IMG/VR virus record: IMGVR_UViG_3300027963_000066
Coordinates: 11,996-75,995 of that record
Length of the DNA: 64,000 bases
DNA from: a virus
Direction: 5' to 3' (one strand)
Below, piece after piece: positions 45,448-55,872 of this stretch (position 1 is the stretch's first letter; each line of letters opens with the position of its first letter). Made by a program: the position numbers and the translations under genes. The notes under the pieces were generated by a model. It did no database searches, had not been told where the DNA came from, and saw only the letters and a program-made list of their open reading frames with translations.

Positions 45448-45524
45448 TGGTACCTCGTCTCAGATTCGAACTGAGAGCCAACAGATTTTGAATCTATCCG
45501 CACTACCAATTAGCGTAACGAGGC
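45448..45524 (-). tRNA. tRNA-Leu(CAA), short variable loop
   Basis: Loop TTCAAAA, CCA. Confidence 0.85.
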
Positions 45525-45526
45525 AA

Positions 45527-45647
45527 AACAGGTTCTCATTTTTTGTGCTACCACTACACCAACACCGCTGACCAAGCAGTGCCCAGGATTCGAACCTGGC
45601 CCGTCTTTTTTACAGAAAGATTTTAATAAGATTGCTGAAAAGAACCT
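45527..45647 (-). ncRNA. CAGCAA-helix RNA copy 3 enclosing a circularly permuted tRNA(GUA)
   Basis: AGGTTCT-TTTCAGCAA...AGAACCT-GTT around anticodon arm, T-arm, capped acceptor stem, D-arm. Confidence 0.85.
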
Positions 45648-46362: not shown

Positions 46363-46452
46363 TGGTCCCCCACTGAGGAATCGAACCTCATCCTGGACCT
46401 TATCTAGATTAATCGGTTATAAGCCGACCTGCTCTCCATGAGCTAGCGGGGG
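46363..46452 (-). tRNA. tRNA-Ile(UAU) with long variable region
   Basis: GTCGG-CTTATAA-CCGAT, ~21-nt variable region, CCA. Confidence 0.8.
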
Positions 46453-48567: not shown

Positions 48568-48643
48568 TGGTGCCCCAGAGGAGACTCGAACTCCTAGGAT
48601 TTGGTTTCTAAGACCAACACGTATACCATTCCGTCACCGGGGC
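48568..48643 (-). tRNA. tRNA-Leu(UAG), short variable loop
   Basis: Loop CTTAGAA, CCA. Confidence 0.87.
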
Positions 48644-51820: not shown

Positions 51821-51912
51821 TGGAGGAAGGATGGTAGAATCGAACTCCAACCGGCTCATCACCGATCCATCTGTTTTCAAGACAGTGCCGGGCCCAGCCC
51901 AGATAACCTTCC
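51821..51912 (-). tRNA. tRNA-Ser(UGA)
   Basis: Loop CTTGAAA, long variable arm. Confidence 0.85.
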
Positions 51913-53426: not shown

Positions 53427-53504
53427 TGGTCTCCATGGTACGATTCGAACGTACAGCCTCCTGACTCCAGATCAGGCCGTCTACCAGATTGACATTACAC
53501 AGAG
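53427..53504 (-). tRNA. tRNA-Pro(UGG), atypical C33
   Basis: Loop TCTGGAG, CCA. Confidence 0.8.
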
Positions 53505-53511
53505 ATAAAAT

Positions 53512-53600
53512 TGGTGTAGCGTGATGGAATCGAACCACTTGGCAACCACCCTGCTTGACGAGGCCTACCGGGTTACAGCCGGCAACAGGGAACACACTAC
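53512..53600 (-). tRNA. D-armless tRNA-Tyr(GUA)-like RNA
   Basis: Acceptor, anticodon arm GCCGG-CTGTAAC-CCGGT, T-arm and CCA present; D region only 10 nt. Confidence 0.75.
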
Positions 53601-53605
53601 ATATT

Positions 53606-53691
53606 TGGTGGAGGCGGATGGATTCGAACCACCGCGCTTTTTAGGGGCCAGATTTACAGTCTGGTGCAATCAACCACTCTGCCACGCCTCC
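53606..53691 (-). tRNA. tRNA-Tyr(GUA)
   Basis: Loop CTGTAAA, long variable arm, ACCA. Confidence 0.93.
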
Positions 53692-53993: not shown

Positions 53994-54020
53994 CCTTTGG
54001 AGTTATTGTGTACTTTTGCG

Positions 54021-54161
54021 TTACACTATGGTCTCCTGGGACCCCGGGCAAATCTCTGGTGTGCGATCATAACTTGACAGATTCGCAAACCAATTAGAGG
54101 GCATAAAGCCCGCCTGTTTGGCGCTTCCTTGTGTTTGTAAATGTATCGAACAGTTTTTCAT
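54021..54161 (-). CDS. Putative attenuator leader peptide (46 aa, all 20 amino acids)
   Basis: Hand translation MKNCSIHLQTQGSAKQAGFMPSNWFANLSSYDRTPEICPGSQETIV; its 3' end holds the antiterminator strand. Confidence 0.65.
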   Translation of the reverse strand: MKNCSIHLQTQGSAKQAGFMPSNWFANLSSYDRTPEICPGSQETIV

Positions 54162-54219
54162 TTGCTTTTCCAATGTTTCCTAAAATTTCATAAACGGCAT
54201 TATTGCTGTTTATGTATCT

Positions 54220-54248
54220 ATTGTACAGTTATTTAGTTCTGCTGTCAA
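54220..54248 (-). promoter_or_regulatory. sigma70 promoter of the tRNA array
   Basis: TTGACA-17 nt-TACAAT. Confidence 0.82.
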
Positions 54249-54319
54249 CCACTATTTTAAGTTTTGAACAAAAAAGTTTGGTCTACTGTGTGAACTTCTA
54301 ACTAGTCTCTAGTATAAGT

Positions 54320-55192
54320 TTATTTAGTCTCTGTGTCAACCTTGTTGTTGTAAATGTGCCACATATCTAGGAACTCCACAACATTTTTTTCAAATCCTCT
54401 TGCGATCAACCAGTCAACTAATTTCTTCTCACTAAGTTGCGGGCTTATGCTACGCTGGTGAATGCCCAGCATTCTGGTCTGATCATGGAGGGCTATCCTT
54501 GCAAGATCCATCCTATCCACTACCTGTTCGGGCGTAAAGAAGTTTTCACACATCCTACGATCGTCTTTACAGGTATCTTTGTTGAAGTATTGGTACAGGA
54601 TAAACTCACTGGGCAACACTCCCTCATAGGTAAACAATGGGATAAGATCGTAATCACTCATGCTCCTGGCATGGGCAGTGTTTATCTTAAAAGGAGGATG
54701 CGGCCTTAGAAAAAATTCAGGTCTGGGCAGTTGGGTGTTGAATTCTATCAGTCGGCAAAAGTCTTCAATCATCTCATTGAAAGGTATGTCCAGTACCTGC
54801 TTCCATGGAATTTCTGGAAGGGCAGGGAATCCGTTGCCTTCTTGTACAGCCCATTGATCCAAATCCGTAGGTTTGATAAAAAAGTTTTTGCTGTCTAGTA
54901 TTAGATACGAATCAGTATCGACTGACCAGGATACATATATTTTGGCCAACTGTTGTTGGTACCATCCGCCCATGTCATCGTTTAATCGACAGATTTCTTC
55001 TATCGAATAGAGTTTAAGTCTATGCTTTTTATAATGCGGTTTGAGATACGACCACCATTCATGCCGTGTCATTACTCTATCTTGGATAATCACAATATGC
55101 GTACATGGCTTGTCTAAAAATAATTCAAGGCTATCTGCCTGAAGTCGCATCATTTCTTTTTCTGCATGGTATGTCACTGTGACCAGAGTCAT
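54320..55192 (-). CDS. GT-A-like (DUF6492-type) protein
   Basis: GWYQQQLAK...YLILDSKNFFIKP. Confidence 0.65.
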   Translation of the reverse strand: MTLVTVTYHAEKEMMRLQADSLELFLDKPCTHIVIIQDRVMTRHEWWSYLKPHYKKHRLKLYSIEEICRLNDDMGGWYQQQLAKIYVSWSVDTDSYLILDSKNFFIKPTDLDQWAVQEGNGFPALPEIPWKQVLDIPFNEMIEDFCRLIEFNTQLPRPEFFLRPHPPFKINTAHARSMSDYDLIPLFTYEGVLPSEFILYQYFNKDTCKDDRRMCENFFTPEQVVDRMDLARIALHDQTRMLGIHQRSISPQLSEKKLVDWLIARGFEKNVVEFLDMWHIYNNKVDTETK

Positions 55193-55872
55193 TTTTCAAA
55201 TACCAATCTTATATTTCCGTTGGCTCTGCATTCATTATCGTGATAGTTTTGATCCACTATAATATAGTTAAGATCGAAATCTCGTATAACTTTATCACAA
55301 TGCATTGCGGCCTGCTCAAATGTAGTGGAATTGTTTTTGATTAACCTCGGTAAATTAAATGTAATAAACCCTCTCCCGCCGGGTTTAATTATTTTGGCAA
55401 AATCTTTTATATAGGTTTCAAATTGGGCTAGATGGTTAAAATGCAGAGAATTAATGGCCACGGCCGCATCAAATTTATTTTTGTGTTCTGTTGCCCAGTC
55501 TGTGGTAAATTCAGCCTGTTCGTCAGCTTGAGGGAATATTGGATCAATTCCATAGAGTCCGTCTATAACATGCTTGAATAAATTTTCTCCACATCCTATA
55601 TCTATTACCCTAACAGGATTTTTTTCCAATAGACGTTCGATGTAATAAAACACACTCATCGATACCGCATTCAATCGTAGCCTTGCAGTCATGTAGTGCC
55701 GTGGGTGAACATCAAATCCGTAGTCTAGGCAGAAATTTTCTTCATGTAACTTCAATGCCAACTCTGATGATCTTTTGGCGAATTCTAAAGCCCGCGGATA
55801 GAGAGGAGAGTTTGGGAATTGGGTTTCGAACTCTACTGCATTATACGGATTTAATAAAAATAAATCTTTCAT
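55189..55872 (-). CDS. Class I methyltransferase
   Basis: VIDIGCG, FDAAVAINSLHF, IKPGG. Confidence 0.82.
   Translation of the reverse strand: MKDLFLLNPYNAVEFETQFPNSPLYPRALEFAKRSSELALKLHEENFCLDYGFDVHPRHYMTARLRLNAVSMSVFYYIERLLEKNPVRVIDIGCGENLFKHVIDGLYGIDPIFPQADEQAEFTTDWATEHKNKFDAAVAINSLHFNHLAQFETYIKDFAKIIKPGGRGFITFNLPRLIKNNSTTFEQAAMHCDKVIRDFDLNYIIVDQNYHDNECRANGNIRLVFEK

Follow-up and report, generated by a model that had tools for sequence, protein, structure and literature searches.

The secondary structure of all known cytoplasmic elongator tRNAs is, to our knowledge, depicted as a cloverleaf. Bacterial tyrosyl-tRNA synthetase (TyrRS) identifies its substrate by the anticodon GUA, the discriminator A73, and a long variable arm. 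In D-armless mitochondrial tRNAs, such as the nematode mt-tRNA-Ser, the arm gives way to a short, flexible connector and the whole molecule is reduced in size. Irregular tRNAs from phages and bacteria have extended this picture: tRNAs with an 8/4 branch can function in E. coli translation and several allo-tRNAs are translation-competent, whereas some irregular tRNAs are charged yet unused in translation; that survey includes no Tyr species and no pseudoknot between the D and variable regions (Mukai et al. 2017, PMC5389517). In tRNA-Sec, nucleotides 16 and 59 are in contact as C16:C59 in E. coli and U16:U59 in eukaryotes (PMC7609411). tRNA-Tyr is also a target in phage defence. Retron-Eco7 PtuAB cuts E. 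coli tRNA-Tyr in the variable loop, a phage tRNA-Tyr whose variable loop differs is resistant, and overexpression of tRNA-Tyr neutralises PtuAB toxicity (PMC12673091).

Here we analyse an 89-nt tRNA-like gene of a giant phage whose D helix is built with the loop of the variable arm. No tRNA was so described in the literature searched, subscription-only papers aside. The design is a tRNA without a cloverleaf, for which we found no published description and which is conserved in more than 100 phage and bacterial sequences.

Results

A tRNA-Tyr(GUA)-like gene with a crossing D helix

The gene lies in an IMG/VR virus contig of 75,995 bp that CheckV places at 21% completeness, and the record is therefore a fragment of a giant phage. 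The window, the 64,000-nucleotide stretch of this record that was analysed, is matched by DNA in freshwater and lake metagenomes. ARAGORN called 33 tRNA genes in the window, all on the minus strand and most of them in an array at ~44.5-53.7 kb. The element (53600..53512, minus strand) is near the upstream end of this array. Next to it, 5 nt away on the upstream side, is a canonical class II tRNA-Tyr(GUA) (53691..53606, minus strand; 61.4 bits with the Rfam tRNA model), the adjoining gene that a preliminary description of the locus had pointed out. RNA position p corresponds to window coordinate 53601-p, and all parts given below are on the minus strand.

The acceptor stem pairs perfectly over 8 bp between nt 1-8 (53593..53600) and nt 78-85, the latter followed by the discriminator A86 (standard position 73) and an encoded CCA (together 53512..53523). 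The T arm (53524..53538) consists of a 4-bp stem (nt 63-66:74-77) and the loop UUCGAUU. The acceptor/T split is thus 8/4 and not the canonical 7 bp and 5 bp, the would-be fifth T pair being A.C. The anticodon arm (53566..53584) has a 6-bp stem (nt 17-22:30-35) and the loop CUGUAAC, with the anticodon GUA at 53574-53576. The 7-nt anticodon loop, U33, the purine at 37, and a T loop of the form UUCRANY are all those of a canonical tRNA.

Between the acceptor and anticodon stems there are 8 nt and no hairpin, which bears out the earlier description of a D-armless tRNA-Tyr with the anticodon GUA. With 8 bp in the acceptor stem and 4 bp in the T stem, only U9-U10 (53591..53592; UU in 121 of 129 sequences) is left as an unpaired linker. 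The other six nucleotides, nt 11-16 (CCCUGU, 53585..53590), pair with nt 47-52 (GCAGGG, 53549..53554), and these are followed by U53-G54-G55 (53546..53548). The variable-arm stem joins nt 36-38 (53563..53565) to nt 58-60 (53541..53543). Since nt 47-52 are within the loop closed by this stem, the D-like helix crosses it, which makes the core a pseudoknot. Nt 11-16, the 5′ strand of the D-like helix, run straight into the anticodon stem and so stand in for the 3′ D-stem strand of a canonical tRNA, while nt 47-52 and the U-G-G after them are, in chain direction, the counterpart of the 5′ D strand and of the D loop with G18-G19. Family members have 6-8 nt ahead of the D-like 3′ strand and 4-6 nt behind it, and the two crossing helices would form simultaneously.

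Standard tRNA finders pass over the element

ARAGORN did not call the element in the window scan, and the Rfam tRNA model RF00005 (gathering threshold 29 bits) gave no match on 53512-53600 at E values up to 10. Its sole Rfam match was to tRNA-Sec (RF01852), at a sub-threshold 26.6 bits against a gathering score of 47. BLAST searches of GenBank phages gave no match to the 89-nt element, and with the 501-nt neighbourhood as query ordinary tRNAs alone were matched. Folding of the single sequence was not exceptional (z = -1.37), its minimum-free-energy fold containing the D-like helix and only fragments of the remainder, so homologues were needed to settle the structure. A covariance model of the family, R1, was built for genome and window searches. 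In the window, the element was its only strong match (104.6 bits); the next was the canonical tRNA-Tyr at 24.9 bits, with which the element shares little sequence outside the T loop.

The family is found in phages and bacteria

An exact 23-mer of the element was contained in 19 IMG/VR contigs. When the anticodon arm and T loop were fixed and the D region and variable loop left free, 71 IMG/VR phage loci were found. Bacterial genome contigs scanned with the phage-type anticodon stem gave no match, and a looser pattern led to three contigs of bacterial metagenome-assembled genomes (MAGs) and at least 119 metagenome contigs. The distinct relatives numbered 56 among phage contigs and bacterial MAGs, which make up alignment A2, and 133 once metagenome contigs were included; a wider set of 129 sequences, also with metagenome contigs, was used for comparison. 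Of the 151 Planctomycetota genomes sampled, 6 had members that scored strongly with R1 (67-94 bits), including some at positions 1.17 Mb and 3.99 Mb on large contigs. The diversity sampled is narrowed by the fact that some search patterns fixed the anticodon loop, the GGG, and the T loop. A pattern of the same architecture with a free anticodon returned no member with any other anticodon. Its extra matches, L073-L113, had no T arm behind them and were rejected as a paralogous family with other anticodons; they are chance matches.

A member in a cultured phage was read from crAss001 (MH675552). In the unannotated 171-nt gap between its tRNA-Lys and tRNA-Phe, CAUCA...UGAUG flanks a GUA arm and crosses a variable-arm stem, CUCC/GGAG (element L279 4141-4238). 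This member has a 7/5 branch, and because R1 gave it only 14.6 bits its structure was read by eye. No tRNA-Tyr is annotated in the first 50 kb of the record, which hold the tRNA cluster. On this reading of the sequence, the gap contains a divergent pseudoknotted tRNA-Tyr(GUA) member.

Five helices are held by compensatory changes

The preliminary description had named covariation in homologues as one check of its proposal. Five helices covary, namely the acceptor stem (8 bp), T stem (4 bp), anticodon stem (6 bp), variable-arm stem (3-4 bp), and D-like helix (6 bp), and no simple decay was seen. Across these helices in the 56 sequences, 99.6% of cells pair, compared with 86.1% (sd 0.5) in shuffles, which ignore phylogeny, and at most 51.8% when partners were slid. 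Double compensatory changes occur at 14 of 27 pairs, and the covariation score is 0.406 against 0.135. RNAalifold independently returned the same nested helices.

The individual stems show how these changes are distributed. Five of the 8 acceptor pairs have double changes in the 56 sequences; the eighth pair is G-C in all 56 and A-U, U-A, or U.G in metagenome members. Two pairs of the T stem have double changes, 65:77 and 66:76 covarying. The covarying pairs of the anticodon stem are 17:35 (U-A 44, C-G 9, G-U 3 in the 56 sequences), 19:33, 20:32, and 22:30. At the middle pair of the variable-arm stem, five pair types were counted: G-C 26, C-G 19, A-U 4, U-A 4, and U-G 3.

The D-like helix, 11-16:47-52, is 100% paired in the 56 sequences. 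Pair 14:49 is U-A in 29 and C-G in 27; 15:48 is A-U in 28, G-C in 25, U-A in two, and G-U in one; and 16:47 is U.G in 53 and C-G in three. In the set of 129, six standard pair types are seen at 14:49, six at 15:48, and five at 16:47, with few cells unpaired. Pair 13:50 is U-A in one Planctomycetota member, others have G-C at 14:49 and 16:47, and 11:52 and 12:51 do not vary. The proposed pairing between the D and variable regions is therefore real and well beyond chance, as covariation in both the 56 and the 129 sequences attests. Its proposed length of 7 bp is not: the helix is the 6-bp CCCUGU:GCAGGG, because U17 pairs with A35 in the anticodon stem, where 17:35 covaries. The idea that the function of the D arm is rebuilt from the variable region is likewise supported by covariation.

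The nucleotides after the D-like 3′ strand were also followed. The TGG noted previously as resembling a D loop corresponds to a UGG whose GG is invariant and whose first nucleotide, nt 53, covaries with T-loop nt 59 (UU 113, CC 9, UC 5, CU 2; Fisher p = 5e-9, phylogeny ignored). The nine C:C cases occur in diverse stems and sequence backgrounds. By these patterns, the U-G-G after nt 47-52 behaves like a D loop, and the 53:59 covariation points to a docked, L-shaped fold, although it gives no more than a hint of it.

Tyrosine identity and the Tyr slot of phage arrays

GUA is invariant among all members; of the 129 sequences, 128 have A73 and 113 encode the CCA. U33 and A37 occur in nearly all members, C33 being found in two Planctomycetota members. 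The first acceptor pair is G1-C72 in all 56 sequences of alignment A2 and A1-U72 in two further Planctomycetota members. With GUA, A73, and a variable region of 25-30 nt that contains a covarying stem, the family carries the identity set of bacterial TyrRS.

Phage arrays indicate the same amino acid, and the tRNA complements are the strongest argument for the function. In one large related phage genome, G001 (383,411 bp), ARAGORN called 41 tRNAs for 19 amino acids and none for Tyr, the 40 matches of the Rfam tRNA model all lie away from the element, and the element is the sole tRNA-like gene with GUA; this genome is recorded as linear without end repeats, and its completeness of 100% is the estimate of CheckV only. 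Among the 71 phage loci, nine have tRNAs for at least 17 amino-acid types but no canonical tRNA-Tyr, and in seven of them ordinary tRNAs cover 19 amino acids, leaving out Tyr alone. A Melioribacteraceae MAG contig has a tRNA array with the same Tyr-only gap. A canonical tRNA-Tyr is also present in 23 of the 71 phage loci and in this window, so the element is not always needed for Tyr. A Planctomycetota genome, G006, likewise contains both the element and a housekeeping Thr-Tyr-Gly-Thr cluster.

The TyrRS family model PF00579 had no match in five large related phage records, so charging, if any, would be by the host enzyme. An orthogonal pair of phage synthetase and tRNA was considered and is unsupported by this search.

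Contigs of 72-153 nt from four lake metatranscriptome libraries, belonging to four studies, cover the element at 90% identity or more and include a compensated replacement of G-C by A-U in the variable stem (53564 with 53542). These contigs come from relatives and not from this exact phage, DNA carry-over is possible, and RNA ends, strand, and level are invisible in them; they fit expression of relatives without proving it. Such contigs also lie on other tRNAs of the array, and there was no cover over 54020-55200, which counts as no evidence.

Other unusual tRNAs in the window and around family members

Several other genes of the window depart from ordinary tRNAs. The stretch at ~45528-45647 (minus strand) combines, in unusual order, a UCUUU-CUGUAAA-AAAGA arm with a T arm and a GUGU-AGUGGUA-GCAC hairpin that resembles a D arm; this is the third of the GUA-bearing RNAs counted in the preliminary description, possibly a tRNA-like element in permuted form. 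In bacteria, tRNA-Leu normally belongs to class II. In the window, tRNA-Leu(CAA) at 45448-45524 (minus strand, 77 nt) and tRNA-Leu(UAG) at 48568-48643 (minus strand, 76 nt) have a short variable loop of the class I type, together with A73. At 51821-51912 (minus strand), a gene without an ARAGORN call combines the Ser anticodon UGA with a tRNA-Sec-like body, scoring 45 bits with the Rfam tRNA-Sec model (gathering score 47), and resembles the (8/4) tRNA-Ser of phages (Mukai et al. 2017, PMC5389517). All three kinds of long-arm tRNA are hence remodelled in the window, as rewired Tyr, 8/4 Ser, and short-variable-loop Leu. A 90-nt tRNA at 46363-46452 (minus strand), with the anticodon UAU, a long variable arm, and relatives of 88-95 nt, recalls the allo-tRNA(UAU) group, a group of unclear amino-acid identity (Mukai et al., PMC5389517). 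A further tRNA without an ARAGORN call, at 53430-53504 (minus strand), has 42.5 bits with the Rfam tRNA model, the anticodon UGG (Pro), and C33 for the usual U.

In G006, the element is part of a small cluster at ~1.168 Mb of contig 1 (L144 17692-18324 and 18396-19178) with the order Leu(CAG), element, Leu(GAG), Ser(GCU), Cys, Ser(CGA). This cluster is between topoisomerase I and a gene of the R2K-clade ATP-grasp family, 5.5 kb upstream of the Thr-Tyr-Gly-Thr cluster. The flanking genes, isocitrate dehydrogenase, RuvX, and topoisomerase I among them, are housekeeping genes. The order Leu-element-Leu-Ser/Cys recurs across other Planctomycetota, in which short Leu tRNAs of a kind similar to those of the window flank the element. 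Related giant phages also have tmRNA genes that are permuted into two pieces and specify tag peptides of their own (L050 10997-11327, L051 8548-8982, G001 375530-375935), and arrays of related phages include a tRNA with the anticodon UUA, which would read the ochre stop codon (L021 1311-1383, L028 8492-8564).

Discussion

We consider it likely that the element is a working elongator tRNA-Tyr(GUA) with a non-cloverleaf, pseudoknotted core. In such an RNA, the 6-bp D-like helix would stack on the anticodon stem in the manner of a tRNA-Sec-type D stem, and the GG would dock on the T loop to complete the L shape. A bacterial-type TyrRS of the host would charge it through GUA, A73, and the protruding variable arm, EF-Tu would accept the 12-bp branch, and the RNA would read UAY codons for the phage. 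As for its origin, the ancestor was probably a class II tRNA-Tyr whose D stem was invaded by the loop of the variable arm and which then lost its first 5′ D strand.

The closeness of a canonical tRNA-Tyr could indicate a decaying duplicate that lost its D arm and has its complementarity by chance, and the ordinary z value of the single-sequence fold (-1.37) would agree with this. We give that reading almost no credence, since more than 130 distinct homologues hold every helix by compensatory changes, none is visibly decayed, and the two neighbours have little sequence in common outside the T loop; covariation excludes a decayed duplicate. It is quite improbable that the crossing helices are alternative conformations between which the RNA switches, from a variable-arm hairpin form to a D-like helix form. 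Covariation does show that each helix forms and not that both form together, and the minimum-free-energy fold of the single sequence has the D-like helix with fragments, but both helices are paired in 56 of 56 sequences, the loop lengths allow them to coexist, and the 53:59 covariation implies a docked, tRNA-like tertiary fold.

Other readings accept the fold and place it outside translation. The element might be a tRNA-Tyr mimic that serves as a decoy, sponge, or inhibitor of a host defence factor, such as an anticodon- or variable-loop nuclease, or another regulatory tRNA-like RNA. A canonical tRNA-Tyr only 5 nt away makes it redundant in decoding in this window, and both forms occur together in 23 of the 71 phage loci; moreover, tRNA-Tyr is a known defence target whose overexpression counters PtuAB toxicity (PMC12673091), and irregular tRNAs that are charged but do not translate are known (Mukai et al. 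2017, PMC5389517). A decoy would need no 12-bp branch, A73, CCA, or GG-docked T loop, however, and all of these are conserved or covarying, while the element fills exactly the lone amino-acid gap in G001 and in seven further phage loci. Such a mimic is unlikely in our estimation, and the decoy put forward in the preliminary description is disfavoured by the conservation of these features and of U33, A37, and GUA, together with the Tyr-only gaps. We find it very doubtful that the RNA serves to carry an aminoacyl group for a reaction off the ribosome, such as that of a tRNA-dependent transferase or ligase, at least in bacteria. The Planctomycetota clusters, with their unusually short Leu tRNAs, Ser and Cys tRNAs, and the adjacent R2K-clade ATP-grasp gene, could suggest such a role, and G006 at least also has a normal tRNA-Tyr. 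Against it, the phage arrays are ordinary full decoding sets with the element in the Tyr slot, no gene for a tRNA-dependent enzyme was identified beside the element, and its neighbours in G006 are housekeeping genes.

Returning to a translating tRNA-Tyr, one can ask why its rewired core is kept. Speculatively, the rewiring may persist because it alters the variable-arm/D surface that is seen by tRNA-Tyr-directed defence nucleases. Escape from nucleases directed at the variable arm, in line with the nuclease evasion suggested in the preliminary description, would be a reasonable hypothesis, given that PtuAB cuts the variable loop of tRNA-Tyr (PMC12673091). We propose, tentatively, a natural translating tRNA with a pseudoknot core, in which the variable-arm loop of a class II tRNA-Tyr came to supply both the 5′ strand and the loop of the D arm, and which phages might keep and spread as one resistant, through its remodelled surface, to host nucleases that cut tRNA-Tyr, for example of the PtuAB type; as a whole, this proposal is possible rather than probable. 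The remodelled Leu and Ser tRNAs in the window would fit a common pressure on tRNAs with long variable arms.

A natural translating tRNA with a pseudoknot core would, if true, break the universal cloverleaf, and a D helix built by a pseudoknot in a conserved tRNA would show that another chain topology also leads to the L shape. Because standard finders miss the element, phage and some bacterial genomes would be wrongly reported as having no tRNA-Tyr. Since tRNA-Tyr is a known target of anti-phage nucleases, a rewired phage tRNA-Tyr is an obvious candidate for counter-defence. A TyrRS substrate with a novel core is also a possible scaffold for orthogonal tRNAs, and the divergent member in the cultured phage crAss001 makes the design directly testable.

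The element combines features of several described kinds of tRNA. With canonical class II tRNA-Tyr(GUA) it shares GUA in a 7-nt loop, U33, A37, A73, nearly always G1-C72, the encoded CCA, a UUCRAYU T loop, a long variable region, the 12-bp branch, and the setting in tRNA arrays. Unlike that tRNA, it has no D hairpin and takes the 5′ strand of its D helix from the variable-arm loop, and its branch is divided 8/4 instead of 7/5 and its anticodon stem has 6 bp. It resembles tRNA-Sec (RF01852) in its long helices, with 6 bp in both the D-type helix and the anticodon stem, in an extended acceptor stem combined with 4 bp in the T stem, and in the length of the variable arm. The U:U or C:C combination between the nucleotide ahead of GG and T-loop nt 59 matches the 16:59 pair of tRNA-Sec (PMC7609411). 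The element differs from tRNA-Sec in having GUA and not UCA, a branch of 12 and not 13 bp, a D helix that is no hairpin, and a score of 26.6 bits, below the 47 of that family.

The (8/4) and (9/3) allo-tRNAs and the phage (8/4) tRNA-Ser and tRNA-His also have tRNA-Sec-like long stems and a long variable arm, with the 8/4 split of a 12-bp branch in the 8/4 kinds, and allo-tRNAs are found, as is the element, in the tRNA clusters of phages and in groups of irregular tRNA genes in bacteria (PMC5389517). Allo-tRNAs keep a D stem-loop with a long stem and a tetraloop and are mostly of Ser identity (PMC5389517), whereas the element has no such stem-loop at the normal position, since the anticodon arm, together with half of the variable arm, intervenes between the strands of its D-like helix. 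Like D-armless mitochondrial tRNAs, the element has no D hairpin between the acceptor and anticodon stems; unlike them, it rebuilds the D helix and a D-loop mimic with GG, and it retains the full length of a class II tRNA.
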